Source: Candidatus Parcubacteria bacterium
GTDB taxonomy: Bacteria > Patescibacteriota > Patescibacteriia > Patescibacteriales > UBA12075
Assembly (NCBI GenBank): GCA_002869165.1
Contig: PKTK01000001.1
Coordinates: forward strand, 157,006 to 221,005
Length of the DNA stretch: 64,000 bases
Direction of reading: 5' to 3'
The notes beneath the pieces were generated by a model, which was not told the origin of the DNA, searched no databases, and saw nothing but the letters and a program-made list of their open reading frames with translations. The position numbers and the translations under genes were made by a program. How positions within the stretch are numbered: the first letter of the stretch is position 1; the number at the start of each line of letters is the position of its first letter. This document shows, piece after piece, positions 3,095 to 61,869 of the stretch.

Positions 3095-4094
3095 TATGAC
3101 AAAAATTGATATAAGCAAAAAAGCTTTAGAAAAAATAAAATCAAGTCGTATCAAGCCTCGCGCTAAGTGGAAGTTTTTACTTACTGAAAATTTGTTTATA
3201 CTTCTTGAAATAGTGCTTGTTTTATTTACTGCTTTGTTTTTTGCTGTTACTATTAATCAACTCATTTATAGTGATTGGGATTTTTATGGCTATATAAATG
3301 GAAATTTATTTTATTATATTCTACAAGTTTTTCCATATTTTTGGTTTTTCTTTTTATTGTTGTTTTTTGTTTTAACATATTTGAATTTTAAAAATTTGAG
3401 AAGATCGTATAGATACAGCACTTACATAGTGCTTGGAACTTTTGTTTTTGTAGTGTTTAGTGCAGGCTATATTCTGTACACTATAGGCTATGCAAAAAAA
3501 ATTGATTTAACATTGATAGATAAATCAGAAATGTATTGTAATCATGTGAACAAGAGGCTAAACACCTGGAACCAGGCTGATAAGGGAATGATTGCTGGTA
3601 GGGTGATTGAGAATAAAGACAATTTTTTCATCATGCATGATCTTGAGGGGAATGTTTGGAATATTGTGTATGGCGATAGTTTATTGTTTGACAGGGAAGT
3701 TATAAACGAGGGAATGCCAATTCGGTTAGTGGGGGGCTTTGAAGAAAAGTTCAAAAATCTTGAACATAATATTTTAATAGCCAAAGAATTGATGCAGGAG
3801 GATTATCTGAATATAAAGTATTTTGATTTTGACAATCTAATTAATTCATTTTGTTTTTCTGATGATGACTGTAGTTTATCATTTGATTTTGCTATCCAGT
3901 CCAGGTGCCCATTCGATTCAGTTTGCATTAACCATACCTGTGAAACAGTTTGCCCGATTATGAATTTAAATAGCAGTGAAGGGTGTAGTGATGTTACAGA
4001 ATGTGATTGTGCTTCTTATTTGGCAACAGACAAAAAGGATTGTATTTGTGAGAATGAGAGGTGTTTGGTGGTGGTTGATGAAGTTAAGAATTAA
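3078..4094 (+). CDS. membrane protein with Cys-rich extracytoplasmic tail, candidate anti-sigma factor
   Basis: Overlaps the sigma gene by 17 nt; several hydrophobic segments; C-terminal CSLSFD..CPFDSVCINHTCETVCP..CDC..CICENERC. The anti-sigma call rests on position only. Confidence 0.55.
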   Translation: MILKNNMTKIDISKKALEKIKSSRIKPRAKWKFLLTENLFILLEIVLVLFTALFFAVTINQLIYSDWDFYGYINGNLFYYILQVFPYFWFFFLLLFFVLTYLNFKNLRRSYRYSTYIVLGTFVFVVFSAGYILYTIGYAKKIDLTLIDKSEMYCNHVNKRLNTWNQADKGMIAGRVIENKDNFFIMHDLEGNVWNIVYGDSLLFDREVINEGMPIRLVGGFEEKFKNLEHNILIAKELMQEDYLNIKYFDFDNLINSFCFSDDDCSLSFDFAIQSRCPFDSVCINHTCETVCPIMNLNSSEGCSDVTECDCASYLATDKKDCICENERCLVVVDEVKN

Positions 4095-4139
4095 GAATTA
4101 AGAATTAAGAATTAAGAATTAAGAATTAAGAATTAAGAA
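4084..4139. repeat. tandem heptamer array (TTAAGAA x 8)
   Basis: Eight perfect head-to-tail copies, starting inside the last codons and stop of CDS 3078..4094. Confidence 0.95.
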
Positions 4140-4153
4140 TAACCTCTTTTAAT

Positions 4154-4215
4154 TGTCATTCCCGGCTGGAGTTGTGAGCGAATGCGAGCAACGGAAGGGA
4201 AGGGAATCTCGTGAA
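4154..4215 (+). repeat. copy of dispersed TGTCATTC...GGAATCTC element
   Basis: TGTCATTCCCGGCTGGAG...GGGAAGGGAATCTCGTGAA; its ends match copies at 14713, 18117 and 18256(rc). Confidence 0.8.
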
Positions 4216-5306: not shown

Positions 5307-5322
5307 AATATCTTTAATTTAA

Positions 5323-5425
5323 AAATTTATAATTTATAATTTGTAAACAATAATTAAATTTTTAAAATTTAAGAAATTATTAATTAAAAATTGTTTAAAA
5401 ATTATAAATTAAAAATTATAAATTT
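5323..5425. repeat. long imperfect AT-rich inverted repeat (hairpin) between porB and the DUF2283-like gene
   Basis: AAATTTATAATTTATAATTTGTAAACAATAATTAA pairs with TTAATTAAAAATTGTTTAAAAATTATAAATTAAAAATTATAAATTT. Confidence 0.7.
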
Positions 5426-5642: not shown

Positions 5643-5757
5643 TAAGCACTAAATTCTAATATCTAAATTCTAAATAATATCAAAATTCAAAATACAAATG
5701 TTTGAAACTTTAGATATTTGTGTTTTGAATTTGTTTAGAGTTTAGAATTTAGTGCTT
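5643..5757. repeat. long imperfect inverted repeat (hairpin) between the two small genes
   Basis: AAGCACTAAATTCTAA...CAAAATTCAAAATACAAAT pairs with ATTTGTGTTTTGAATTTG...TTAGAATTTAGTGCTT. Confidence 0.75.
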
Positions 5758-5764
5758 AGAGTTT

Positions 5765-6874: not shown

Positions 6875-8077
6875 TTATTTGTTAATAAATTTCATCTTAT
6901 CACCTGGTTTTTTAATTTCTACTAATATTTTATCAATCATTTTCTTGGTTATATCTTTTCCGCCTAGACCCACTATGAATGACTGAACTTTGGCCAGGGT
7001 TTCATTCTTGGCAGTGGCTTTCATGTCTAGAGCTAGAGGTCCGTCAGTGGCGCCTAGGGAAACGGCCTTTTCAAGAACTGCTACGAATTTGGCCTTTTGG
7101 ATGATTTTCAAGACTTCTTTTTCAGGGAAAGGACGGAAAGTTTTGATTTTGAGTACTCCAACTGAGTTGATGTTGAGCTTGGCTTTGAGTCCAGCGTTGT
7201 TTTCTATTTCATCAACAGCATCTTTGACTGTACCGACTAGTGAGCCCATAGCTACCAAAACTGTTGTTGGGTTCTTTGGTCCATAATATTCTATCAGGGC
7301 ATTGTTAACCTGAGCTTTCTTTTCTGACTGTTTAATAACTTCAGGAATTGCTTGTTTTAGGTTTTCGTATTCTCGTTTTAGAACTTTTTGGGAATCAACT
7401 AAGGCATCATGCAATTCTTCACGAATTTCCATGTAGTATGCTGGGGCTGCAAAAGCACCAAAACTTGCAGGATTGTCAGTATCTAGGAAGGCGCCTTTGG
7501 CTGGTTTGTAGTCAGGTAGATAGTTTTTGACCTGATTTGTACTTGGTACAGAAACTCCTTCATAAGTATGAGTTAATACAAAGCCATCAACATTTACCAT
7601 TACTGGCAATCCAACTTGCTCAGAAACTTTGTAGGCTAGTAGATGTTGCTCAACAGCTTCTTGATGATTTTCAGCAAAAAGTATTATCCAGCCAGCGTCA
7701 CGGATAGACATTGCATCTTGATGATCATTCCAGATAGTAATAGGAGCTGATACACCACGATTAGCACAGGTAAGAACTACCGGTAGTCTCATACCAGCAA
7801 TATTGTATAAAACCTCAGTCATTAGTAGTATCCCTTGGGAGCTGGTAGCAGTGTAGACTCGAACACCAGTAGCTGATGAACCAGCCACGATTGAAGCAGC
7901 AGCAAATTCGCTTTCAGCTCTAACGTATGTATATTTAGCTTTGTCATCAGCTTTAAATTTGGCTAGATCCTCCACAATATGTGTTTGTGGAGTTATTGGA
8001 TATGCTGAAATCACAGCCGGATTGATATTTTTTATTGTCTGGGCAATAGCTTGTGAGCCCTCAAGTATTTGTCTCAT
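6875..8077 (-). CDS. porA: 2-oxoacid (pyruvate):ferredoxin oxidoreductase alpha subunit
   Basis: 400 aa; N-terminal G.QAIAQ...AYPITPQT motif; adjacent to the other por subunits. Confidence 0.9.
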   Translation of the reverse strand: MRQILEGSQAIAQTIKNINPAVISAYPITPQTHIVEDLAKFKADDKAKYTYVRAESEFAAASIVAGSSATGVRVYTATSSQGILLMTEVLYNIAGMRLPVVLTCANRGVSAPITIWNDHQDAMSIRDAGWIILFAENHQEAVEQHLLAYKVSEQVGLPVMVNVDGFVLTHTYEGVSVPSTNQVKNYLPDYKPAKGAFLDTDNPASFGAFAAPAYYMEIREELHDALVDSQKVLKREYENLKQAIPEVIKQSEKKAQVNNALIEYYGPKNPTTVLVAMGSLVGTVKDAVDEIENNAGLKAKLNINSVGVLKIKTFRPFPEKEVLKIIQKAKFVAVLEKAVSLGATDGPLALDMKATAKNETLAKVQSFIVGLGGKDITKKMIDKILVEIKKPGDKMKFINK

Positions 8078-8093
8078 ATTTTATTCATTTAAA

Positions 8094-8519
8094 CATATAA
8101 ACATGTAAGCATGTAAACATTTTTATTTGGTTATTATTTTAATGATTTAATTAATTTCCAGAGCATTGCTCCTATTTCATCAGACAATTTTGCAATTTCT
8201 TGATATTCTTTGTTTGAGAAATAATTTTCAATAAAAGTAAAATGTAATAAATACTTTGATTCTTTCAGTGATCCGTATGAAATTTTCCAAAAGTATTTTT
8301 TTGTTTTGCTTTGCTTTGCTCTCTTGCAAATCCTTCAATATAATTTAGTATCACAGATAGAGAGCTTCTTCTAAGTTGTGATGTACTTCCAAACTGTTCT
8401 TCTTTTGGAAATTTTTTTGTTATTTTATAAACATCATGGGCATATTTATCCATTTTTTCTTTTAGACTAATTTGAAAATCATTCATGTTTAAATGTTTAT
8501 ATGCTTACATGTTTATATG
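8094..8519. mobile_element. inverted-repeat-bounded four-helix-bundle gene cassette (IVS-like), copy 1
   Basis: CATATAAACATGTAAGCATGTAAACAT (8094-8120) matches the reverse complement of 8493-8519 at 26/27; fills the porD-porA spacer. Confidence 0.6.
8134..8486 (-). pseudogene. four-helix-bundle protein (23S rRNA IVS-protein family), frameshifted
   Basis: N-half MNDFQISLKEKMDKYAHDVYKITKKFPKEEQFGSTSQLRRSSLSVILNYIEGFAR is in one frame and C-half ..YFWKISYGSLKESKYLLHFTFIENYF...MLWKLIKSLK is in another. Adding one base to the T7 run at 8296-8302 restores the frame. Confidence 0.75.
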
Positions 8520-8520
8520 A

Positions 8521-8811
8521 TTACTTTTTCTCTAGCTTCATTTTAATAGCTTTTACTGGGCATTCGGTGGCGCAGACTCCACAACCTTTGCAGTAGTCGT
8601 AGTCGGTGACTGGTTTTTGGCTGGCTTTATTTTTTTGCATCACTATGCATGATTCAGGGCAGGCTTTGGCGCAGGTGCCACAACCAATGCATTTTTTATA
8701 ATCAGTTTCCGGGATATAAGTGCGCCATGAACCGGTTTTGTTATTTAATGTTGAAGCAGCTTTGCTTGTTATGTCCATATTTGTATATTGATAAATAATT
8801 ATTTTTGTCAT
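8521..8811 (-). CDS. porD: 2-oxoacid:ferredoxin oxidoreductase delta subunit (2x[4Fe-4S] ferredoxin)
   Basis: CIGCGTCAKACP and CKGCGVCATECP motifs. Confidence 0.9.
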   Translation of the reverse strand: MTKIIIYQYTNMDITSKAASTLNNKTGSWRTYIPETDYKKCIGCGTCAKACPESCIVMQKNKASQKPVTDYDYCKGCGVCATECPVKAIKMKLEKK

Positions 8812-10547: not shown

Positions 10548-10595
10548 TGTTAAATGGTTAAATTGTTAAGTTATTAGCAATTTAGCCATTTAACA
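10548..10595. repeat. gene-less hairpin of the GTTAAA.GTTAAATTGTT arm family
   Basis: TGTTAAATGGTTAAATTG (10548-10565) matches the reverse complement of 10578-10595 at 17/18; same arm family as cassette 3 (41626/42033). Confidence 0.8.
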
Positions 10596-10609: not shown

Positions 10610-12367
10610 ATGAAAAAATATTTTTTTATTTGTCTATTTTTATTCTTATTTGCTTTCTCAGTTAGCGCTGAAGAAGTTAGTGATTTTCGTCAGGAAATTT
10701 CTTTAGAGCGTGATGCTAGTTTTGTAGTAACCGAAACTATCACTTATGATTTTGGTGATTTAGAAAAACACGGTATTTATCGAGATATTATTTATAAATA
10801 CAATTCACAATTAGGTAGATATAAATTGGATTTGAAAGTGTTAAGTGTAAAAGATGACAAAGGTAATGATTGGAATTACCAGATTATCAATGATGGGGAC
10901 TATAGGAGAGTGAAAATTGGAGATGCTAATAAATTAGTTAGTGGCAAGCAAGTATATGTTATTGAGTATCAAGTCAAGAAAGGAATTACTTTCTTTGAAG
11001 ATCATGATGAATTGTATTGGAATGTGACTGGACAAAAATGGGAGGCGCTTATCAGACAATCGGTAGCTACGGTTGTTTTACCTGAGTTACTTGAAGAAAG
11101 CCAGCTTGATTTTAGTTGTTATTCTGGTGCTGTAGTATCGAATTCAGAGTGTGTGTCCAAACGTTTTTCTTATGAAGGGGCTGGCATGGTCAAAGAGGCG
11201 GTTTTTATAGATGACGTTATTCAAACTGGGAATGGCTTCACTATAGTTATGAGTTTTCCCAAAGGGTATATAGAAGAGCCAAGTTTTATTGATAAGGTAT
11301 TTTCATTTGCATGGAGTAATTGGATAATAATTCTGCCTTTATTTGTTCTTTTCTTTATGTACAAGATATGGCAAAGCAAGGGGAAAGATCCAATCGGTAG
11401 AACTACAATTGTAGCAGAGTTTGATGCTCCGGACAAGCTAAGTCCTATGGAAGTTGGGACTTTAGTTGATGAACATGCAGGTAAGGCAGAATTTAGTGCG
11501 CAAATTATTTATCTTGCCATCAAGGGTTATATCAAAATTATTCAAGATGAAAAAGGTAAATTCTTTAAGACTAAGGATTATGTGCTGTTAAAAATAAAAG
11601 ATAGTAGTGATCTTCCGAAATTAGAAAAATTATTTATTGATAAAATATTTTCTAGAGATTATCTGGAAACAAACCAAGAAGTATTAGATAAAACTAGTTC
11701 ACAAATTGATACAGACTATGATATCAAAATGGTTCGTATGTCAAAATTGAAGAATAAGTTTTACAATGAATTTCAGAGTCTTAAAAAAACTAGCTATGAG
11801 GTATTGGTTGAGAAAGGTTATTTTTCCAGAAATCCAAATTCCACCAGAGCTTTTTATACAGTATTTGGAGTACTTTTGATTCCTACTTTATACTTTCTAG
11901 CTCCTATGCTTGGACCAATTGCTATTGTCAGTATAATAATTTCATCTTTGATCATTATTGTTTTTGCCCAACTTATGCCTCAGAAAACTAGAAAAGGGAG
12001 CGTAGCTAGAGATCATATTCTTGGTTTAAAAAGATATTTGGAAGTCGCAGAAAAGGACAGATTGGAATTTCATAATGCCCCAGAAAAAAATCCCAAGGTT
12101 TTTGAGAAGTTACTTCCATTTGCCATGGCACTGGGAGTAGAGAAAAAATGGGCCAAACAATTTGAAGACATTTACAGTGGGCAAAATCCAAATTGGTATA
12201 CTGGAAATACTCATGCATTTTCTGCTTTAGCTTTGACGGATTCTATTTCAAGTTTTTCAAGCTTTACTAGTTCAAGTATGACTAGCACAGCTAGCTCGGG
12301 TGGTTCAGGCTTTTCAGGTGGCGGAGTTGGAGGAGGCTTTGGTGGTGGAGGAGGAGGATCGTGGTAG
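10610..12367 (+). CDS. DUF2207-family membrane protein
   Basis: Signal peptide, large extracytoplasmic N-domain, TM segments, C-terminal GGGVGGGFGGGGGGSW tail typical of this family. Confidence 0.75.
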   Translation: MKKYFFICLFLFLFAFSVSAEEVSDFRQEISLERDASFVVTETITYDFGDLEKHGIYRDIIYKYNSQLGRYKLDLKVLSVKDDKGNDWNYQIINDGDYRRVKIGDANKLVSGKQVYVIEYQVKKGITFFEDHDELYWNVTGQKWEALIRQSVATVVLPELLEESQLDFSCYSGAVVSNSECVSKRFSYEGAGMVKEAVFIDDVIQTGNGFTIVMSFPKGYIEEPSFIDKVFSFAWSNWIIILPLFVLFFMYKIWQSKGKDPIGRTTIVAEFDAPDKLSPMEVGTLVDEHAGKAEFSAQIIYLAIKGYIKIIQDEKGKFFKTKDYVLLKIKDSSDLPKLEKLFIDKIFSRDYLETNQEVLDKTSSQIDTDYDIKMVRMSKLKNKFYNEFQSLKKTSYEVLVEKGYFSRNPNSTRAFYTVFGVLLIPTLYFLAPMLGPIAIVSIIISSLIIIVFAQLMPQKTRKGSVARDHILGLKRYLEVAEKDRLEFHNAPEKNPKVFEKLLPFAMALGVEKKWAKQFEDIYSGQNPNWYTGNTHAFSALALTDSISSFSSFTSSSMTSTASSGGSGFSGGGVGGGFGGGGGGSW

Positions 12368-12370
12368 TTC

Positions 12371-12815
12371 AATTAAAAATTAAGAATTAAAAATTAAAAG
12401 TATTGCATGGAAGATAATGTTATCAAGAAAAAGTCTTTTGATTTTTCTGTTAGAATAGTAAAGGGGTATAAATATTTAACTACTAAAAAACGAGAGTTTG
12501 TTTTGTCAAAACAGTTATTACGAAGTGGTACCTCAATAGGAGCAAATATCGAAGAAGCAATAGGCGGTCAATCAAGAAAAGATTTTATTTCGAAATTTTC
12601 AATAGCATATAAAGAAGCCAGAGAGAGTAAATATTGGATAAGACTTTTAAGGGAAGTAAATTATTTAACTGAAGAGCAGGCAGAATCATTGCTTGATGAT
12701 TGTGATGAAATATGTAAAATAATTTCAAGCATATTAATAAGCAGTAAAAACAAAGATAATTGAAATTTTAAGAACTGAGAATTAATTCTTAATTTTTAAT
12801 TCTTAATTTTTAATT
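12371..12815. mobile_element. inverted-repeat-bounded four-helix-bundle gene cassette (IVS-like), copy 2
   Basis: AATTAAAAATTAAGAATTAAAAATTAA (12371-12397) matches the reverse complement of 12789-12815 at 27/27. Confidence 0.65.
12407..12763 (+). CDS. four-helix-bundle protein (23S rRNA intervening-sequence protein family)
   Basis: KSFDFSVRIVKGYKYL...LSKQLLRSGTSIGANIEEA.G.QSRKDFISKFSIAYKEARESKYWIRLL is the typical family pattern. Confidence 0.85.
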   Translation: MEDNVIKKKSFDFSVRIVKGYKYLTTKKREFVLSKQLLRSGTSIGANIEEAIGGQSRKDFISKFSIAYKEARESKYWIRLLREVNYLTEEQAESLLDDCDEICKIISSILISSKNKDN

Positions 12816-12822
12816 CTTTTTT

Positions 12823-13572
12823 ATGAAATTAATATCTTGGAACATAAATGGTATACGAGCTGTTATCAAAAAAGGTTTACTTGATTATTTGAAAAAAGAA
12901 AAGGCAGAGGTTTTTTGTTTTCAGGAGATCAAAATTGCCGAAGTAGCACGTATTAAGGAAGGACTAGAATTTTCAGATTGGCAGGAGTTTTGGAACTCAG
13001 CTGAACGGCCTGGTTACTCTGGGACTTTGACTTTGGTTAAGAAGGGGATTAAGGTAGGTTATTTGCACAAATTAAAATGGGATGATGAAGGGCGCATTCA
13101 GGCACTTGAGTTTGAAAAATTTATTTTGGTCAATGTTTATTTTCCCAATGCTAATCACGAGCTAAGCAGATTGGAGTTTAAAATGAAATTCAATGACAAA
13201 TTACTTGCTTATTTAAAAAAGCTTGAAAAGAAAAAGCCAGTAATAATTTGTGGTGATTATAATGTAGCTCATGAGGAAATAGATCTAGCTAGGCCAAAGG
13301 AGAATGTAGGCAATCCAGGTTTTACAGATGAGGAGAGAGCATGGATGAATAAGTTTTTGGACAAAGGTTTTACGGATACATTCAGATACAAACATCCAGA
13401 TAGTATTAAATATTCATGGTGGAGCTATCGAGCAGGAGCTAGAGCCAGGAATGTTGGCTGGAGGATTGACTATTTTTGTGTATCTAGTAGTATAAAAAAC
13501 AAAATAAAAAAAGCATATATTCAAAATGATGTTTTGGGCTCTGATCATTGTCCTGTAGGAATTGAAATGTGA
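12823..13572 (+). CDS. xth: exodeoxyribonuclease III
   Basis: MKLISWNINGIRA, CFQE, GDYNVAH, SDHCP motifs. Confidence 0.9.
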   Translation: MKLISWNINGIRAVIKKGLLDYLKKEKAEVFCFQEIKIAEVARIKEGLEFSDWQEFWNSAERPGYSGTLTLVKKGIKVGYLHKLKWDDEGRIQALEFEKFILVNVYFPNANHELSRLEFKMKFNDKLLAYLKKLEKKKPVIICGDYNVAHEEIDLARPKENVGNPGFTDEERAWMNKFLDKGFTDTFRYKHPDSIKYSWWSYRAGARARNVGWRIDYFCVSSSIKNKIKKAYIQNDVLGSDHCPVGIEM

Positions 13573-14014: not shown

Positions 14015-16780
14015 ATGGATAAATATAACCCAAATAAAATTGAGTCGAAATGGCAGGAAAAATGGGCTCGCGATAAGGAATATGTAAGAAAAGAGAATGA
14101 AAGAGAAAAGTATTATATGCTTGATATGTTTCCCTATCCATCAGGGGATGGTCTTCATATGGGGCATACCGAATCATATACTGCATCAGACATTATTTAT
14201 AGATATAAGAGGTTAAATGGTTTTAATGTTTTACACCCACAGGGCTTTGACTCTTTTGGTTTACCGGCTGAGAATTATGCTATTAAAACTGGTGTGCATC
14301 CAAAAGTTACTACAGAGAAAAATGCTGCTAATTATATTGTACAGATGAAGATGCTTGGACTTGGGCATGACTTGGAAAATATGGTTTATACTTCAAGACC
14401 AGATTATTACAGATGGACACAATTTTTGTTCGCCAAGTTTTTTGAGGGAGGTTTGGTAGAGCGCAAGACCGATACAATTAATTGGTGTCCGAGTTGTAAT
14501 ACTGGCATTGCTAACGAGCAAGTAGAGGACTCTAAATGTGAGCGTTGTGGTACAGAGATTGAACAGAAAGAAATTCCTGGCTGGTTTTTTAAGATTACTG
14601 ATTTCGCAGATGAATTGATTGAAGGCTTAGATAAAATTGACTGGCCAGAGCATACAAAGAAGAATCAGCGGAATTGGATTGGGAAAAGTGAAGGAGCGAA
14701 GATAAAATTCTCTGTCATTCCTGGCAAGCGAAGCGAGGGAAAGGAATCTCGTGAAGAAGAGTCTCTTGAAGTTTTTACTACTCGACCGGATACGCTTTTT
14801 GGCGCAACTTATATGGTGATAGCACCTGAGCATCAACTGATTGCAAATACTAAACAACAAATAACAAATTACAAAGAAGTTGAGGAATATATTCAGAAAG
14901 CAAAAAATAAGACTGAGATGGAGAGGCAGGAGAATAAAGAAAAGACTGGGATAAAGATTGAGGGCCTTAAGGCAATTAATCCTGCAACAAATGAGGAGAT
15001 ACCTATTTTTGTGGCTGACTATGTTCTCGGGGGCTATGGTACAGGTGCGATTATGGCTGTACCAGCTCATGATGCTAGAGATTATGAGTTTGCAATTAAG
15101 TTTAATCTGCCTATTAAACAAGTGGTGGCACCTTTTTGGCAAGCAGAGAATGACTGGTATGACGCTGTACGAGAGGATTTGGAAACTGTTGAGCGAAGAC
15201 TGGTTTATGCTTTGGTTAAAAATCCAAAAGACAATAAAGTTTTACTTTTAAAATGGCCTGGATATAATACCCATACATTTATAGTTGGGGGAGTAGAAGA
15301 AGGGGAAGATCTTGTAGAGGCTGCTCGAAGAGAAGTCCTGGAAGAGACGGGTTATAAAAATTTAAAATTGATCAAGGAATATAATGATGAGGTGCATGTT
15401 AAATATTGCGCAGTTCATAAGAATCAAAATAGATATGCCATGGCCAAATGTATTCAATTTGAACTAGAAGATGAAGAAAGAACAAAAGTGAGTGATGATG
15501 AAAAAGCTAAACATGAAGCTCTTTGGGTGACTGAAGAAGAGGCTGAAAAACTGCTTGAATACAAAAATTTTACATATTTTTGGCAGATGTACAAAAAAGG
15601 AGAAGAAGTCTTTGTGGGTAATGGAAATATTATTAATTCAGGAGATTTTAATGGTTTAGATGTAACTGAAGCTAAAGAAAAAATAACCAAATTTGTAGGT
15701 GGTGAAATGACAGCGACTTATCGTTTGCGTGATTGGTCTATGTCTCGGCAGAGGTATTGGGGTGCTCCCATTCCTATAGTTTATTCACCAGAAGGCGAAG
15801 CTAAGTATGTTGGGGATGAGAATTTGCCCTGGCTGTTGCCTGAAGATGTTGATTTTGTGCCAACTGGTGAGTCGCCACTTAAACTTTCAAAAGAGTTACT
15901 CGAGCGAACTGAAAAAATCTTTGGTAAAGGATGGACTCCAGAAGTTGATACTATGGATACCTTTGTTTGTTCTTCTTGGTATTTTTTGCGCTATCCCGAT
16001 ACAAAGAATGAACAAGAGTATTGTTCAGAAGAGAAATTGAAGGATTGGTTGCCGGTTGATTTTTATATTGGTGGTCCTGAGCATACCTATATGCACCTTC
16101 TATATGCAAGGTTTTGGGTCAAGGCTATGCACAGGCTTGGCATGATAGATTTTGACGAGCCTTTTATGAAGCTTCGCCATCAGGGTATGGTCCTTGATAA
16201 GCAAGGTGTTAAAATGAGTAAGTCAAAGGGGAATGTAGTAAACCCAAATGATATGGTGAGCCAGTTCGGCGCTGATGCCACTCGTTTATATATGATGTTT
16301 GCAGGTCCCCTGGAAGATGATGTGATGTGGAATGAGGAAGGAGTGAAAGGTGTTTATCGTTTTTTAGAGAAAACTTGGAAAGTTTTTAATGAAATTGAAA
16401 TGATTGATTGTGGACCTGATTGTAGGGGGGTTGATGAAGCTATTCTAGGCCTTTACCATAAGACAATTAAAAAGGTTACAGATGATATTGAAAATATTAG
16501 TTTCAATACAGCAATTTCAGCGATGATGATATTTGTTAATGAATGTTTGAAACAGGAAAAATTACCAGCTCCTGCCATGAAAAACTTTTTAATTTTATTA
16601 TCTCCATACGCTCCTCATATTACCGAAGAATTGTGGGTAAAAATGGGAGGAAAGGGTAGCATATTTAATGCTAAGTGGCCAAAGTATGATGAGGCAATGT
16701 TGAAAGACGAGCTGATCAAAATTGTTGTACAGGTGAATGGGAAGCTTCGTGATACTTTGGAGGTGGATGCAGATATTTAA
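14015..16780 (+). CDS. leuS: leucine--tRNA ligase with embedded Nudix domain; the frame continues past the TAA at 16778 to 16897
   Basis: HMGH and KMSKS motifs, TTRPDTLFGATYMVIAPEH, YRLRDWSMSRQRYWG; the conserved C-terminal tail lies after the in-frame stop. Confidence 0.9.
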   Translation: MDKYNPNKIESKWQEKWARDKEYVRKENEREKYYMLDMFPYPSGDGLHMGHTESYTASDIIYRYKRLNGFNVLHPQGFDSFGLPAENYAIKTGVHPKVTTEKNAANYIVQMKMLGLGHDLENMVYTSRPDYYRWTQFLFAKFFEGGLVERKTDTINWCPSCNTGIANEQVEDSKCERCGTEIEQKEIPGWFFKITDFADELIEGLDKIDWPEHTKKNQRNWIGKSEGAKIKFSVIPGKRSEGKESREEESLEVFTTRPDTLFGATYMVIAPEHQLIANTKQQITNYKEVEEYIQKAKNKTEMERQENKEKTGIKIEGLKAINPATNEEIPIFVADYVLGGYGTGAIMAVPAHDARDYEFAIKFNLPIKQVVAPFWQAENDWYDAVREDLETVERRLVYALVKNPKDNKVLLLKWPGYNTHTFIVGGVEEGEDLVEAARREVLEETGYKNLKLIKEYNDEVHVKYCAVHKNQNRYAMAKCIQFELEDEERTKVSDDEKAKHEALWVTEEEAEKLLEYKNFTYFWQMYKKGEEVFVGNGNIINSGDFNGLDVTEAKEKITKFVGGEMTATYRLRDWSMSRQRYWGAPIPIVYSPEGEAKYVGDENLPWLLPEDVDFVPTGESPLKLSKELLERTEKIFGKGWTPEVDTMDTFVCSSWYFLRYPDTKNEQEYCSEEKLKDWLPVDFYIGGPEHTYMHLLYARFWVKAMHRLGMIDFDEPFMKLRHQGMVLDKQGVKMSKSKGNVVNPNDMVSQFGADATRLYMMFAGPLEDDVMWNEEGVKGVYRFLEKTWKVFNEIEMIDCGPDCRGVDEAILGLYHKTIKKVTDDIENISFNTAISAMMIFVNECLKQEKLPAPAMKNFLILLSPYAPHITEELWVKMGGKGSIFNAKWPKYDEAMLKDELIKIVVQVNGKLRDTLEVDADI
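14713..14755 (+). repeat. in-frame copy of the TGTCATTC...GGAATCTCGTGAA element inside leuS
   Basis: TGTCATTCCTGGCAAGCGAAGCGAGGGAAAGGAATCTCGTGAA; both ends match the intergenic copy at 4154-4215; encodes VIPGKRSEGKESRE. Confidence 0.75.
15128..15612 (+). other. Nudix hydrolase domain inserted in LeuRS
   Basis: Perfect Nudix box G-GVEEG-E-DLVEAAR-REVLEETGY at 15287-15355. Confidence 0.75.
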
Positions 16781-16930
16781 GAAGAAGAGATTAAAAAGCT
16801 TGCTTTAGAGTCTGAGAAGGTTGAGAAATGGACTGCTGGCAAGGAGATTAAGAAAGTTATATATGTGAAGGGGAAGTTGGTAAGCGTGGTTGTGTAGTTT
16901 TATAAAATGTATAGACTACAAAAATACTTG

Positions 16931-17028
16931 GGCTACGAAAATACGAATCTATACGAATTTACGAATAATTTTGATATGTTCGTGATGAACAGATTCGTAA
17001 ATTCGTACTTATTCGTATTTTTGTAGCC
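16931..17028. repeat. hairpin repeat, GGCTACGAAAATACGAATC family, copy 2
   Basis: 36-nt arms GGCTACGAAAATACGAATCTATACGAATTTACGAAT and the reverse complement of 16993-17028, about 32/36 matches. Confidence 0.85.
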
Positions 17029-38675: not shown

Positions 38676-39686
38676 ATGAACGTAAACATTGAAGAAAGCG
38701 TAAGAAAATTTAATGAGTTTCACTCAGTGGTAGTCTTTACTATTGATAATGGCAAGGTCGCCAAGAAACTTGGTGATATAGGAACTAAACATGAGGTTAG
38801 TTTGTACCCCTTGCTTATTTTTGTTTGTACTGGTGATGTTTCCGAAGATGCTATTCCTACCTATTTGAGTGAAGTTCAGGGAAAAAGTAAGATGGCAATT
38901 GATAGGATAGTGCCCGAGTTCAAGAAAGAAGTTTTAGATGTATTGGTGAGGAGACTTAATTTCTTAAATCAAGAACCTGATAAAGAAATGACTCAAAAGC
39001 AAGAAAAACAATATTTAAGAGAAATGTTTGAGAATCATTTGACAGAAGAATTCACCAATCATGAAGTGATAATAGAGGCAGTTAATGATCGGATATTTTC
39101 AATATTTGCTTCAGAACTTAATTTTAAGAATGAACTAGAGAAAATACTTTATGAAAACAATGAAAAACTAACTACCAAGAAGTTTATTTTGGATGGCAAG
39201 GTAGTTGAACCTACTATTAAAAATTGGTTGAAATATTTTATAGAGAAACGAGGTACAGAAATGATTGATAGTATAAATATGTCAGTGTTTGTTTCTCAGT
39301 CAGAAAATTCTAAAATTTTAGACGAGGATGAAAAAAGATTTTTGTTTAAGCTATTAACTCTTTATAGAAATTTGAAATTCTTTCCCCAAAGTATGCCTAG
39401 TGACGATGGAGAGGGTTGGGAGATTATACCTACTGAAAAAAAAGAAGAGGTAAGTAAAGCAGCCCAGCTTAGTAGAGAAAAGAAAACAGGCACCCAAGAG
39501 GTGGTTGAGCAACTCGGAGGAGATGTTAGTGATTATCCTGAAGGCAGTTTAGAAAGGGAAATACTAGAAGAAGAGGATGAAAAGGAAAAAGAGTATCAAA
39601 AGTTATTGCTACTGTCCAATAAATATGAAGAAGGTAGTCTTGAGAGAAGGGCAATCGAAGAGGAAATTAAAAAAATTAAAAATTAA
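38676..39686 (+). CDS. hypothetical acidic protein
   Basis: ORF track; no motif recognised; its 3' end runs into a repeat arm. Confidence 0.6.
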   Translation: MNVNIEESVRKFNEFHSVVVFTIDNGKVAKKLGDIGTKHEVSLYPLLIFVCTGDVSEDAIPTYLSEVQGKSKMAIDRIVPEFKKEVLDVLVRRLNFLNQEPDKEMTQKQEKQYLREMFENHLTEEFTNHEVIIEAVNDRIFSIFASELNFKNELEKILYENNEKLTTKKFILDGKVVEPTIKNWLKYFIEKRGTEMIDSINMSVFVSQSENSKILDEDEKRFLFKLLTLYRNLKFFPQSMPSDDGEGWEIIPTEKKEEVSKAAQLSREKKTGTQEVVEQLGGDVSDYPEGSLEREILEEEDEKEKEYQKLLLLSNKYEEGSLERRAIEEEIKKIKN

Positions 39687-39700
39687 GAATTAAAAATTAA
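39674..39700. repeat. solo copy (27/27) of the cassette-2 arm
   Basis: AATTAAAAATTAAGAATTAAAAATTAA is identical to 12371-12397; overlaps the last codons and stop of CDS 38676..39686; no inverted partner nearby. Confidence 0.85.
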
Positions 39701-39724
39701 GAATTAAGAACATCTCTCATCAAT

Positions 39725-39759
39725 TGTCATCTCGAACGAAGTGAGAGACCCCTTAAACG
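39725..39759 (+). repeat. copy of the TGTCATCTC...CCTTAAACG element
   Basis: TGTCATCTCGAACGAAGTGAGAGACCCCTTAAACG; both ends match 8806-8867. Confidence 0.7.
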
Positions 39760-39820
39760 TTCTATTATCTTTTATTTAAAGGTTTTTCAAACTCACAGGG
39801 TTTGAAGACAAATAAGAGAT

Positions 39821-39887: not shown

Positions 39888-41606
39888 ATGATAAATTATC
39901 TTGAAAAATATAAAAATTTACCCAAAGAGTTAAGAGACAGGGTGTCTACCCCAGCTGTAATGGAAGCAATTCATGAATTGGAGCAGAAGTACAATGTAAA
40001 ACTAGCAACCATAATAATGCGAGTAATGGTGAGGGATATTGAGATAGAGCGTTTACATAGTCTTTTTGTATATGAAAACGGCTTGGATGATAATAATGCC
40101 AAGGAGCTTATAAAAGAGTTAAATGAAAGGGTTTTTTCTAGTATCTCTGCGTATTTAGATTATATTCATAACAGTAATGTGCGTATTCCCACTGAAGAAG
40201 GAGCTAAACAAGAACCAGTAAACACGTCTAATACGAAAAATTCAGCTGACTTTTATTTCTCAGCTGAGGATGAGGAGGAGGTTCGAAGTCAGGCAAAGGA
40301 TCTAGGTGACTTGGATAAGAGGGAGTTAATTGCCAAGCAAGTAGAAAACAAGATAGATCAGATATTGGCTGAAGTTAATGTTATTTTTAGCTCTGAGGAT
40401 ATGATGCTCCGTTTGCGTCAAATTCTTAAGACATATTTAAAAGGCGTTAGGAATAAAATAGACACTATTTCAGTTTTAAAAAGAGAAATAGAGAATGGAG
40501 GCTTAGCCTTGGATGATGAGATCGCAGATGATATTCTGAAGGTGGTTGACTTGATAAAGAAAGATGAAGCAGAACATCCAGGTCGACCCCTAGAAGAAGT
40601 TAAAAAAATTGATTTTGAAAAAGAAGAAAAAATAAAGATCGAAAAAGAAAATATAAATAACGATGTGCCATATGATTTTAGTGGTTTACAAAATCAAAAA
40701 AATATTAAAACCGATGAGCAAGACCCTGTTGTAATAGATACACAAAATAATATTGAAGAAAAGGAATCTTTGATGGTTGATAGTCTTGAAGTTGAAAATG
40801 AGCCCAATGTAGAGAAAGAAGAACAAGAAGATAAAACAAAAAACACATTACCAGATCATAATTTTGGGGAAATCAGTCCAGAGGAGAAGAGTAGCAATAT
40901 TGATCTTCGTATCCCTGAAGAAAAAGAAGAAGTAAAAGATGAAAATAAAGAAGAGCTTGTTTTTGTAAGCGATAAGATTGCTTCAGATTCTTCTCCAGCA
41001 GATAATAATTCTGTTATAGAACAAGAGCAAAAAGAAGGAGAAAAAAAAGAAGAGGAAAAAGAGATGGTTATTGACCTAAAAGCAGGTCAAGAAGATAATA
41101 ACCAGACAGAAGTTTTGGCTGAAAAAACAGAAGAGGGTAGCGGTGATGTTGGATTTAAGCCTGGCATGATGGCCAAAGCTAGAAATAGTACACCAAGCAA
41201 TAATGAATTTAAAGAAAGGTTTGCTAGTCAGTTTAATTCACAAAATAATGGCAAAGTAAGAATGGAAGACATAAAGCATGTTTCTAAATTATCAGGACCT
41301 GAAGAAGAATTGGCCTCCATGACTTTAGTTGACTTTCGCCGTTTAGGTGATTCACCTAATGAAAGAATTGATAAAATAATAAATATGTTAAATCTTTTGG
41401 AAGAAGAAAGTTTTAGTAAAAGAATGATCGGCATCAAAGCTTGGCGGAAAAGTCCTTTAAATACTATGTACAGACAACTTGGGCAAGAGAGTATGACTAA
41501 ACAAAAAGACATTAGAGAGCTTTTGTACGAAAAAGATGAAAGTGAATGTATGAGCAAAGAAGAGTTTGATGCAGTTATGCAGTTGAATAAGAAATTGAGA
41601 TATTAA
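39888..41606 (+). CDS. hypothetical protein with long E/K-rich low-complexity centre
   Basis: ORF track; AAGGAG directly abuts the ATG, so the exact start is uncertain. Confidence 0.6.
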   Translation: MINYLEKYKNLPKELRDRVSTPAVMEAIHELEQKYNVKLATIIMRVMVRDIEIERLHSLFVYENGLDDNNAKELIKELNERVFSSISAYLDYIHNSNVRIPTEEGAKQEPVNTSNTKNSADFYFSAEDEEEVRSQAKDLGDLDKRELIAKQVENKIDQILAEVNVIFSSEDMMLRLRQILKTYLKGVRNKIDTISVLKREIENGGLALDDEIADDILKVVDLIKKDEAEHPGRPLEEVKKIDFEKEEKIKIEKENINNDVPYDFSGLQNQKNIKTDEQDPVVIDTQNNIEEKESLMVDSLEVENEPNVEKEEQEDKTKNTLPDHNFGEISPEEKSSNIDLRIPEEKEEVKDENKEELVFVSDKIASDSSPADNNSVIEQEQKEGEKKEEEKEMVIDLKAGQEDNNQTEVLAEKTEEGSGDVGFKPGMMAKARNSTPSNNEFKERFASQFNSQNNGKVRMEDIKHVSKLSGPEEELASMTLVDFRRLGDSPNERIDKIINMLNLLEEESFSKRMIGIKAWRKSPLNTMYRQLGQESMTKQKDIRELLYEKDESECMSKEEFDAVMQLNKKLRY

Positions 41607-41625
41607 ATTAGTAAATGACTACATT

Positions 41626-42033
41626 GTTAAAGTGTTAAATTGTTTATGGAAAGCAAGTTTTTGATGTTAGGAGATTTAAACTCTTATTGTATTTCTTTTG
41701 GATTGTCAAATTATGTTTGGGGTGTTGTGGTTAATTGGGATAATTTTAGCAAGATAACAGTAGGGAAGCAATTTGTTAGGTCTGTAGATTCGATTTCAGC
41801 AAATACTGCAGAAGGTTTTGGCCGTTACAATAAGAAAGATAAAATAAAATTTTATAGATATAGCTTTGGCTCAGTAAAAGAATCTTTAGATTGGAATCAA
41901 AAAGCATTTTCAAGAAATTTGATAAACAAACAAGCGCATAGCCATATATATCATGAGCTTGATAAAATGCCAAAAAGAGATAAATTCATTAATTAAATAT
42001 ACTAACCAAAAATTAACAATTTAACAGTTTAAC
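41626..42033. mobile_element. inverted-repeat-bounded four-helix-bundle gene cassette (IVS-like), copy 3
   Basis: GTTAAAGTGTTAAATTGTT (41626-41644) matches the reverse complement of 42015-42033 at 18/19. Confidence 0.6.
41646..41996 (+). CDS. four-helix-bundle protein (23S rRNA IVS-protein family)
   Basis: ATG at 41646 preferred over the track's TTG at 41640; GKQFVRSVDSISANTAEGFGRYNKKDKIKFYRYSFGSVKESLDW is the family pattern. Confidence 0.8.
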   Translation: MESKFLMLGDLNSYCISFGLSNYVWGVVVNWDNFSKITVGKQFVRSVDSISANTAEGFGRYNKKDKIKFYRYSFGSVKESLDWNQKAFSRNLINKQAHSHIYHELDKMPKRDKFIN

Positions 42034-42045
42034 TATTTATATAAA

Positions 42046-42522
42046 ATGCAACAATTTACCGTACCACAATTTATTGATGTCGAAGATAAGGTGATTGGCT
42101 TTATTACTGTTAGGCAGTTTATTATACTTTTGGTAGCAGCCTTGATAATTGCTATTTTGTACAAATTGCTTTACTTTGAAACATTTATTATCAGCGCTGT
42201 TATAGTTGCTTTTATTGCTATTATTGTCGCATTTGCCAAAATAAATGGTGTTAATTTTCATATCTTTTTTACTAATTTCCTAATAACATTATTCAAACCC
42301 AATGTTAGAGTTTGGAATAATGCTTTTGGAAAAGATTATGTGAAAATTGTTGCTGAAAAGGTGGTGGAAGACTCAAAAGAACCAGAAGTGATAAAGACTT
42401 ATAGTTCTTCAAGACTTACTGAATTGTCTATGATTGTAGATACCCAGGGTGTTTTTAAGGGAACTGAGACACCTGAAGATCAGAATGTTGATTATAAAAA
42501 AACATTACATAGTAGAAATTAA
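42046..42522 (+). CDS. PrgI-family (VirB3-like) T4SS membrane protein
   Basis: MQQFTVPQFIDVEDKVIGFITVRQFIILLVAALI plus a second TM; immediately upstream of VirB4-type genes. Confidence 0.7.
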   Translation: MQQFTVPQFIDVEDKVIGFITVRQFIILLVAALIIAILYKLLYFETFIISAVIVAFIAIIVAFAKINGVNFHIFFTNFLITLFKPNVRVWNNAFGKDYVKIVAEKVVEDSKEPEVIKTYSSSRLTELSMIVDTQGVFKGTETPEDQNVDYKKTLHSRN

Positions 42523-59439: not shown

Positions 59440-59523
59440 GCCCAGGTGGCGGAACTGGTAGACGCGCGGGACTCAAAATCCCGTTCTGGCAACAGAGTGC
59501 GAGTTCGATTCTCGCCCTGGGCA
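59440..59523 (+). tRNA. tRNA-Leu (anticodon CAA), long variable arm, no encoded CCA
   Basis: Acceptor GCCCAGG/CCTGGGC, anticodon stem CGGGA/TCCCG with loop CTCAAAA, T-arm GCGAG-TTCGATT-CTCGC. Confidence 0.9.
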
Positions 59524-61779: not shown

Positions 61780-61869
61780 GAAGTATCATGTAAGCATGTA
61801 GGCAAGTAAATGTATAAGTAATTTAGAAAATTATTTAAGAAATGTGTTAAATGTTTTAGTATTTTAAAT

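Follow-up and report, generated by a model that had tools for sequence, protein, structure and literature searches.

A hairpin-bounded PF05635 gene cassette between protein-coding genes of a Candidatus Parcubacteria bacterium, a probable copy of a widespread class

The PF05635/TIGR02436 proteins constitute a very common family of unexplained function, named after a rare location, the intervening sequences (IVSs) of 23S rRNA. Here, we describe a 445-bp unit of a Candidatus Parcubacteria bacterium (contig PKTK01000001.1) in which a gene of this family is enclosed by two inverted arrays of a 7-nt unit and lies between two protein-coding genes, DUF2207 and xth. We refer to this unit as cassette 2; everything reported for this genome, a metagenome-assembled one, concerns one 64-kb stretch of 34.5% GC (hereafter the window) on a 500-kb contig of ERZ794999, numbered from its first letter. 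In our judgment, the 445-bp unit probably belongs to a widespread class of self-contained hairpin cassettes, and a similar degree of confidence attaches to the definition of that class as a PF05635 gene between two inverted arrays, each typically of five 7- or 8-nt units whose sequence is specific to the protein subfamily. The cassette thereby joins three topics, namely, the PF05635 family, the rRNA IVSs, and the unexplained arrays of heptamers found in other genomes. The ligand of the protein, the architecture of the IVSs, and the origin of the heptamer arrays are now testable in cultivable carriers for which crystal structures exist.

The left arm of cassette 2, AATTAAAAATTAAGAATTAAAAATTAA, is complementary at 27 of 27 positions to a right arm 391 nt away, as established both by reading the sequence and with a repeat finder, and the pairing stretches to 31 nt at 94% (Table 1). 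Both arms are tandem arrays of a short unit, AATTAAR, repeated four times on the left and five times on the right, and hence are able to pair in several registers. The left array stops 9 nt 5′ of the ATG of the only open reading frame (ORF) that the cassette holds. A mere 3 nt separate the DUF2207 stop codon (12367) from the left arm, and 7 nt the right arm from the xth ATG (12823); in silico excision of the cassette leaves a DUF2207-xth spacer of 10 nt, TTC+CTTTTTT. A sequence-only reading of the window had proposed the perfect 27-bp inverted repeat, the 445-bp unit with its sole 118-aa four-helix-bundle ORF, and the distances of 3 and 7 nt. The pairing and both distances hold on the sequence, and the protein scores well above the cut-offs of PF05635 (107.9 bits; cut-off 33.8) and TIGR02436 (117.2 bits; cut-off 24). 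The arm duplex has a computed ΔG of −24.4 kcal/mol, and the terminal stem is closed in both the minimum-free-energy and the centroid folds. A promoter and terminator scan returned no convincing promoter for the cassette, and a search of the window against Rfam at the gathering threshold returned only a tRNA (59440-59523), the arms being covered by no known RNA family.

Cassette 2 has company in the window. An inverted-repeat scan of the 64 kb (at least 18 nt, at least 85% identity, spacing of 150-800 nt) recovered three sites only, which correspond to cassette 2 and to two further units, cassettes 1 and 3, whose arms are built of 8-mers. By comparison, each of 20 Markov shuffles yielded 0-3 inverted repeats, none of them longer than 23 nt; a chance origin of the three is excluded. 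A six-frame profile search found exactly three PF05635 genes, the proteins of cassettes 1 and 3 also passing the PF05635 and TIGR02436 tests, such that 3/3 long-range inverted repeats enclose a PF05635 gene. The sequence-only reading had listed both additional cassettes as sharing the architecture of the first with arm sequences of their own, and had asked whether every four-helix-bundle gene is flanked by arms. Both cassettes are real, with extents of 8090-8523 and 41620-42039, but their arm sequences are not private to each copy; all three family genes in the window are arm-flanked (3/3), as are most of their relatives elsewhere. The three cassettes are co-oriented with both of their neighbors. 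In elements of this kind the start codon abuts or falls within the left arm, and the C-terminus often extends into the right arm.

The same design recurs far beyond this genome. A search for the PF05635/TIGR02436 family gave at least 8000 scored candidates, and the cassette 2 protein has thousands of homologues, the best being 65-73% identical among the matches listed and mainly from Bacteroidota. Cassette-2-type genes were collected at 80 loci of species-representative genomes, 79 of them testable and mostly from metagenome-assembled genomes (MAGs) or metagenome contigs. Their labels include Bacteroidota, Ignavibacteria, Planctomycetota, Verrucomicrobiota, Lentisphaeria, Acidobacteriota, Gemmatimonadota, Latescibacterota, Chloroflexota, Desulfobulbia, several Proteobacteria, and Shapirobacteria, more than 10 phyla in all. 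As most loci derive from MAGs, single phylum labels may be wrong; an assembly artifact is guarded against, because the design is also present in plasmids and in Xanthomonas genomes. Flanking inverted repeats with a score of at least 15 were found at 64/79 cassette-2-type loci, versus 0/480 control positions of the same span in the same loci. In nearly all of the 64 flanked loci the arms are AATTAnn arrays, with the reverse complement in the downstream arm. The commonest unit is AATTACG, followed by units with AAG, AGG, and AAA endings, and an arm holds a median of 5 units (interquartile range 4-5). Where units are irregular, the opposite arm often mirrors them (for example, 34/34 at locus L036 and 31/31 at L045), and complementarity is greater within elements than between them (p = 5e-6 and 1e-5, values that are indicative only, the pairs not being phylogenetically independent).

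Other protein subfamilies carry other units. Among metagenome relatives of cassette 3, 26/35 loci have inverted arms of ATTGYTnn octamers (score at least 13.5), and at locus L055 a second, different PF05635 gene stands between AATTTAG / CTAAATT arms. Plasmid loci of cultured or enriched organisms have arrays that pair as inverted arms in 7/8 cases, each with its own unit: (CAATTCG)x5 followed by (CGAATTG)x5 in two Nostoc species, (GATTAGT)n in Bernardetia, CAGTTAC / CACTGGT in Euhalothece, GAAAGNG in Treponema, AATCGTA and AATCCCC in Planktothrix, and GATGAAN in Chlorohelix. The eighth, from Anabaena cylindrica, has GTAAAAA-type units with weak inverted pairing (score 12.5). On contigs of the IMG/VR viral collection, 14/21 loci are clearly arm-flanked, with further units still. 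One of these contigs (L147, 1425-1849) displays "everted" arms, (TAATTCG)n upstream and (AATTACG)n downstream, pairing at 33/33 positions, and thus the cassette-2-family unit in the opposite polarity relative to the gene. A search of viral contigs with the cassette 1 protein gave no match, and the survey of this subfamily covers the present species. Taken over all these loci, each protein subfamily has an arm unit of its own, which is conserved across phyla.

These comparisons also dispose of the most mundane account, in which an ordinary small gene happens to lie between terminator or stabilizer hairpins and the inverted repeat arises by chance or as an artifact of AT-rich, low-complexity sequence. 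The window is indeed of low GC, and the arms are AT-rich and of low complexity. Nevertheless, the shuffles never reach the arm length, none of the 480 control positions reaches the score, identical units are found at a host GC of 60-63%, and the design is present in complete genomes of cultured isolates. We regard this account as scarcely credible and, in view of the shuffle and control-position tests, refuted.

Whether the cassette was inserted at its site can be judged from two relatives that lack it. Loci L119 (GCA_021107875.1) and L121 encode Xth proteins 75% and 72% identical to that of the window, and their genes stand in the order seen there, porA-porD-dsbA-small ORF-DUF2207-xth, L121 having a porG call as well. 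Both are devoid of PF05635 genes at the DUF2207-xth junction, where the spacers of L119 and L121 measure 13 and 25 nt, respectively, and at the porD-porA junction, where they measure 44 and 103 nt. Because these syntenic relatives do without it and have such short DUF2207-xth spacers, cassette 2 represents a discrete unit inserted into a ~10-nt spacer within an operon-like row of genes. The sequence-only reading had suspected as much and proposed a search for empty DUF2207-xth junctions; two have now come to light. In L121 the two spacers hold short repeats: a mini-array of 2-3 units, AATTATG AATGAAA AATT, between DUF2207 and xth (3976-4000), and a gene-less hairpin of ACGAAT-type units between porD and porA (185-289). 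These could be footprints, seeds, or landing pads at sites that are occupied in the window. Elsewhere, cassette genes 90-99% identical to one another were found in unrelated or half-unrelated flanks, and MAGs labeled Terriglobia and Gemmatimonadota have copies with 81% nucleotide identity. Within the species, strain L003 (ERZ794998), 98.6% identical to the window over the common 6.4 kb, carries both cassettes 1 and 2; its cassette 1 gene is intact (115 aa) and that of the window strain is broken, which indicates that cassette genes decay within species.

The cassettes obey a consistent geometry. Across 86 well-defined elements, the span has a median of 448 nt; the left arm follows the upstream stop codon at a median distance of 4 nt, and the next gene follows the right arm at a median distance of 7 nt. 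Of the 80 elements for which neighbor orientation could be scored, 71 are co-oriented with the upstream gene. By analogy with the ORF-bearing IVSs of 23S rRNA, we infer that a cassette without a promoter of its own would be transcribed by read-through from the upstream gene, that its arms would form a 27-bp stem in the transcript with the ORF in the loop, and that RNase III would cut this stem. Such a cut would release the ORF while the host RNA to either side stays usable, which may be why rRNA helices and spacers between cistrons alike tolerate these units. The basic, likely pentameric protein most likely recognizes its own unit arrays, perhaps with one subunit per unit, a proposal suggested by the co-variation of unit and subfamily, the conservation of the arms against host composition, the match of five units to five chains, and the basic isoelectric point (pI). 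Recognition of this kind could explain why unit and protein subfamily travel together. Movement of the cassette may proceed by recombination between arrays or by mobilization in trans.

A number of observations weigh against this picture of insertion, RNA processing, and array recognition. The relatives with empty sites are moderately distant, with Xth only 72-75% identical; the cassette may conceivably have been lost in L119 and L121 and not gained in the window, and the L121 mini-array could be the footprint of a lost cassette. No target-site duplication was detected at the 28 best-defined elements or at the window copy (TTC | CTTTTTT). Many arms are imperfect, being 70-90% complementary, and the fold energy of cassette 2 as a whole is ordinary (z = −0.59), the terminal stem alone standing out. 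Mismatches in the arms comprise 101 G·T and 82 A·C (p = 0.18); as this is no significant excess of G·T, the count does not single out selection on an RNA stem from a feature at the DNA level or from common descent of the two arms. Neither an RNase III gene nor its signature motif was found within the 64-kb window, which is uninformative at that sample size. The agreement of five units with five subunits is so far only a numerical coincidence, and, to our knowledge, no catalytic function has been assigned to a PF05635 protein.

The terminal inverted repeats, the small and fixed size (median 448 bp), the intergenic location, the insertion polymorphism, and the existence of short gene-less derivatives recall a non-autonomous DNA transposon of the miniature inverted-repeat transposable element (MITE) type, in which the four-helix-bundle gene would be a passenger and the transposase would be unlinked. 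That the termini regularly start with AATT and finish with AATT fits such an element too. The comparison falters elsewhere: target-site duplications are lacking, as noted above, the arms are arrays of variable unit number with no fixed terminal sequence, and no transposase adjoins any locus inspected. Moreover, a passenger gene would not be expected to produce the co-variation of unit and protein subfamily that is seen across phyla, and the supposed passenger would be the one constant and most conserved part of the element. We therefore consider a MITE improbable.

The protein itself is tightly constrained. The cassette 2 protein matches two entries of the Protein Data Bank (PDB), 2RLD of B. 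thetaiotaomicron (E 2.7e-36) and, with the profile, 2GSC, which is XCC0516 of X. campestris (E 3.5e-10), each entry with five chains, and the cassette protein is probably pentameric like these crystallized homologues. The proteins are basic (pI 9.0-9.6). The published family motif GxxRxxxSxxxNxxE (PMC3936711) is represented by its R-x3-S-x3-N-x2-E part, with R39, S43, N47, and E50 invariant in the alignment; Q36, S40, and E73 are invariant as well, Q36 occupying, in this subfamily, the G position of the published motif. Seven positions, N4, E49, I52, G53, G54, Y68, and R72, are conserved in the AATTAnn group and variable in proteins with other units, and six of them (49, 52-54, 68, and 72) adjoin the invariant N47/E50/E73. 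These six are candidate specificity determinants, a lead and not a result, given nine out-group sequences and no correction for relatedness.

Evolutionary rates tell the same story of constraint. The ratio of nonsynonymous to synonymous substitution (dN/dS) was obtained for 15 pairs of cassette genes. It is about 0-0.09 in the eight syntenic pairs (dS 0.2-1.0), up to 0.24 in pairs in unrelated flanks, and 0.43 in a pair that includes a frameshifted copy, with most pairs at 0.01-0.1; the cassette gene is under strong purifying selection. In syntenic pairs it is more conserved than its coding neighbors. At those divergences the arms are nearly unchanged (the right arm 35/35 at dS 1.0), and they differ mainly by gain or loss of whole units. 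Gene GC follows host GC (r = 0.90, range 26-54%), whereas the arms stay AATTAnn in hosts of 60-63% GC, which implies that the arm sequence itself, beyond its ability to pair, is maintained.

The fold invites one further comparison. The accessory protein bAvd of diversity-generating retroelements belongs to the same fold superfamily; it forms a pentameric four-helix-bundle barrel, is basic, and binds nucleic acid together with a reverse transcriptase. One could thus imagine that the cassette protein serves, much like Avd, as the accessory of such a retroelement or of some other system with a reverse transcriptase, the arms being part of a template RNA, the more so since PF05635 is related to bAvd and the cassette 2 protein weakly matches PF22296 (21.5 bits) and NF033474 (17.9 bits). 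Both scores are far under the cut-offs of 40 and 80, respectively. The neighbors are DUF2207/xth, porD/porA, and PrgI, with no adjoining reverse transcriptase or pair of template and variable repeats, and the protein matches no PADLOC model. On these sub-cut-off scores and this gene context, the idea is rejected as very improbable.

Units of the cassettes also occur in the window without a gene. Of 16 such arrays in the window, 11 have a period of 7 and 5 a period of 8, against a shuffle expectation of ~0.17 and ~0.13 (~0.3 in all); arrays of period 5, 6, or 9 are lacking. Two solo AATTAAR arrays supply the stop codons of ORFs that encode unrelated proteins, and are consequently not part of a gene duplication; one of them contains, at 39674-39700, a segment identical to the 27-nt left arm of cassette 2, and with the perfect (AATTAAG)x8 array at 4084-4140 it provides the further arm copies that the sequence-only reading had thought worth seeking. 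Several gene-less hairpins complete the set, among them one of cassette-3-type octamers (10548-10595; fold −26.5 kcal/mol) that is absent from L119 and L121. A comparison of fold energies between strands was contradictory for these hairpins relative to the direction of transcription. The gene-less hairpins and solo arrays of cassette units belong to one picture with the gene cassettes.

Each solo AATTAAR array is followed by a similar module (4141-4215 and 39711-39770), "AAC.TCT...AATTGTCAT(T/C)C" plus a GC-rich hairpin, which resembles a further, distinct type of short repeat joined to the arrays. Gene-less AATTAGG/AATTAAA hairpins and solo arrays also recur several times within a few kb in high-GC hosts whose MAG labels are Gemmatimonadota and Opitutales (L041, 2777-2860 and 4771-4846; L053, 1303-2431), the L053 arrays being bracketed by GC-rich palindromes (GGCGCC).

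Table 1. Cassettes, arms, solo arrays, and gene-less hairpins of the 64-kb window
Feature	Position	Strand	Details
Solo array, perfect (AATTAAG)x8	4084-4140	+	provides stop codon of ORF 3078-4094
Gene-less inverted heptamer arrays, TAATTTA / AAATTAT	5315-5425	.	
Gene-less hairpin, CTAAATT / AATTTAG heptamers	5649-5764	.	unit also flanks the second four-helix-bundle gene in L055
Cassette 1	8090-8523	-	between porD (8521-8811) and porA (6875-8077), inside operon
Cassette 1 arms	8090-8122 / 8491-8523		33 nt, 94% complementary, octamers TAAACATN x4
Cassette 1 gene	8134-8486	-	frameshifted by a 5-bp TTTGC duplication at 8305-8309
Gene-less hairpin, cassette-3-type octamers GTTAAATN	10548-10595	+	4-nt loop, immediately 5′ of DUF2207 start codon
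Neighbors of cassette 2	DUF2207 10610-12367, xth 12823-13572		both co-oriented with cassette ORF
Cassette 2, whole	12371-12815	+	445 bp: left arm, four-helix-bundle gene, right arm; between DUF2207 and xth
Cassette 2 left arm	12371-12397	+	four heptamers AATTAAA AATTAAG AATTAAA AATTAA; TRF array 12371-12399, period 7, 4.1 copies
Cassette 2 gene	12407-12763	+	118-aa four-helix-bundle protein (PF05635 / TIGR02436), pI 9.0
Cassette 2 right arm	12789-12815	+	inverted heptamers TTAATTC / TTAATTT; full array 12782-12818, 5.3 units
Gene-less hairpin, TACGAAT-type units	16934-17020	.	3′ of leuS
Solo array, AATTAAR x5.3	39674-39710	+	gene-less; provides stop codon of ORF 38676-39686
Cassette 3	41620-42039	+	between 572-aa ORF and PrgI-family gene
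Cassette 3 arms	41620-41647 / 42012-42039		28 nt, 86% complementary, octamers TGTTAAAN x3
Cassette 3 gene	41640-41996	+	118 aa, PF05635
Short solo array, cassette-1-type units CATGTAAR	61787-61809	+	

Two features of the surroundings deserve mention. Cassette 3 is preceded by a 572-aa acidic, low-complexity ORF with no Pfam match (39888-41606) and followed by a PrgI-family gene, a type IV secretion component (42046-42522), and the region around it may be conjugative or mobile. The leuS gene (14015-16897, +) encodes a NUDIX hydrolase domain (PF00293; NUDIX box GGVEEGEDLVEAARREVLEETGY) between the two halves of the catalytic domain, an insertion that, as predicted from the translation, would be unusual for a leucyl-tRNA synthetase (LeuRS).

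Tandem heptamers in intergenic spacers have been described before as orphans. GGGAATC arrays occur in Xanthomonas, including 70-75 convergent inverted pairs, with no associated gene, and Nostoc has another intergenic family, GGGGAYT (PMC4692102). TAACTGA heptamers are distributed patchily over Beggiatoaceae, cyanobacteria, and Bacteroidetes, and of their horizontal spread it was written that "no mechanism is evident" (PMC4679880). Neither report mentions PF05635 genes. If orphan and cassette repeats are related, a Xanthomonas PF05635 gene should be flanked by the Xanthomonas heptamer, and this was predicted beforehand. The partial sequence of XCC0516 (2GSC) in the PDB alignment was used to find genomic orthologues and their gene context. 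As predicted, the Xanthomonas XCC0516-type gene lies between accB and accC and is flanked by inverted GGGAATC-type arrays, GGGAATC GGGAGTG GAGAATC GGGAATC on the 5′ side and, with the unit inverted, CCCATTC CCCATTC CCGACTC CCTATTC on the 3′ side. Similarly, the AATCCCC unit of the Planktothrix plasmid equals the GGGGATT unit of Nostoc (PMC4692102). For the TAACTGA and STRR repeats, the sole likeness seen is a 6/7 resemblance of the Euhalothece units. The orphan families (GGGAATC, GGGGAYT, TAACTGA, and the STRR of Calothrix/Nostoc) thus resemble the cassette arms as tandem heptamers in intergenic spacers with a patchy phyletic distribution, and differ from them in that most of their arrays are gene-less.

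A more ambitious generalization may be entertained, although we hold it to be tentative and rather doubtful as a whole. PF05635 pentamers would be sequence-specific readers, perhaps also propagators, of 7-8-nt arrays, and the gene with its inverted arrays would be the autonomous form of one ubiquitous selfish "repeat-and-reader" class. Gene-less derivatives would then constitute the orphan heptamer families (GGGAATC, GGGGAYT, STRR, and possibly TAACTGA), the classical ORF-bearing IVSs would be rare cases of insertion into an rRNA helix, and the whole would parallel the REP/RAYT elements on an unrelated fold.

The same dispersed arrays could be read as a regulatory system, in which the four-helix-bundle protein binds heptamer arrays of RNA or DNA in trans, the arrays and hairpins that lack a gene act as operators of translation, termination, or mRNA stability, and the arrays around its own gene serve autoregulation. 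Strong purifying selection on the protein would be expected of such a regulator, and the arrays sit exactly at gene boundaries, over stop codons or just 5′ of start codons, the latter being a preference of the published heptamer arrays as well (PMC4679880). One gene-less hairpin scores as terminator-like, and the adjustment of gene GC to host GC bespeaks long residence. On the other hand, presence and absence differ at two junctions between syntenic relatives, near-identical cassettes occur in unrelated contexts and different phyla, relatives reside inside rRNA genes, where regulation is unexpected (PMC4990558, PMC11270868), and copies decay, as seen in the frameshift of cassette 1 and in the reductive evolution reported for Coxiella. 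A regulatory system is in our view unlikely, if clearly less so than a MITE, and it and the insertion view are not mutually exclusive.

For the insertion of self-contained cassettes, which we favor, there are immediate consequences for annotation: PF05635 genes inside cas, restriction-modification, or metabolic operons are probably insertions and not functional partners of their neighbors. A role in defense was considered and rejected. No PADLOC model is matched by any of the three PF05635 proteins of the window, and the cas, restriction-modification, and helicase neighbors seen elsewhere fit insertion into any operon spacer. Such neighborhoods include an array-flanked PF05635 gene between cas2 and cas1, on the opposite strand, in Anabaena cylindrica pANACY.01 (L125, 989-1336), one between a helicase-related gene and an N6 DNA methylase in Chlorohelix (L130, 995-1360), and one between a helicase-domain gene and a large hypothetical gene in Planktothrix (L129, 1001-1360). 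An association of the family with cas loci has been reported (PMC3936711), and it may likewise reflect insertion into operon spacers instead of shared function.

Our literature search, beyond whose reach lay the older primary papers, found no description of the arm-flanked PF05635 form outside rRNA, nor of subfamily-specific unit arrays or their link to orphan heptamers. There is a substantial chance that the cassette represents a broader, undescribed class.

Among known systems, the REP/RAYT elements (REPtrons) offer a parallel in genomic organization. They consist of a small gene flanked by inverted short repeats that are also dispersed without the gene as intergenic hairpins; each gene subfamily has its own repeat, the protein is an HUH/Y1 transposase, and the repeats are single imperfect palindromes. 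The cassettes resemble them in that the gene is flanked by its own repeat, which is also dispersed gene-less as hairpins. The cassette protein, in contrast, is a four-helix bundle devoid of HUH/Y1 motifs and matches no transposase in a Pfam scan, and the repeats are tandem arrays of a 7-8-nt unit.

In anatomy, the nearest relative is the ORF-bearing rRNA IVS, as the sequence-only reading had recognized; Coxiella and Leptospira carry such IVSs in 23S rRNA genes. The 23S IVS of Coxiella burnetii measures 444 nt and has a 28-bp terminal stem, a sense PF05635 ORF in the loop, and GACAGAT repeated three to four times in its 5′ arm before the start codon, and RNase III cuts in its stem (PMC4990558); PF05635 ORFs also occur in 16S and 23S insertions of the candidate phyla radiation (CPR; PMC11270868). 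Cassette 2 compares at 445 nt, within the ~430-760 nt expected of IVSs, with a terminal stem of 27 bp (~25-30 bp expected) and AATTAAR x4 in its 5′ arm. In both, the loop ORF encodes a PF05635 protein in the sense of the host transcript, its start codon abuts the arm, the unit number varies among strains, and copies are prone to decay. They differ in that the cassette lies between protein-coding genes and not in an rRNA helix, and a blastn search with E. coli 23S rDNA found no match in the window or in 152 loci. The Coxiella IVS ORF is decaying and probably untranslated, whereas the cassette gene is under purifying selection; and RNase III excision has been shown for rRNA IVSs, whereas for the cassette we infer it by analogy. 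Cassette 2 thus exhibits every structural feature of an IVS except the defining rRNA location, and because of that exception it is an IVS-like cassette instead of an IVS.

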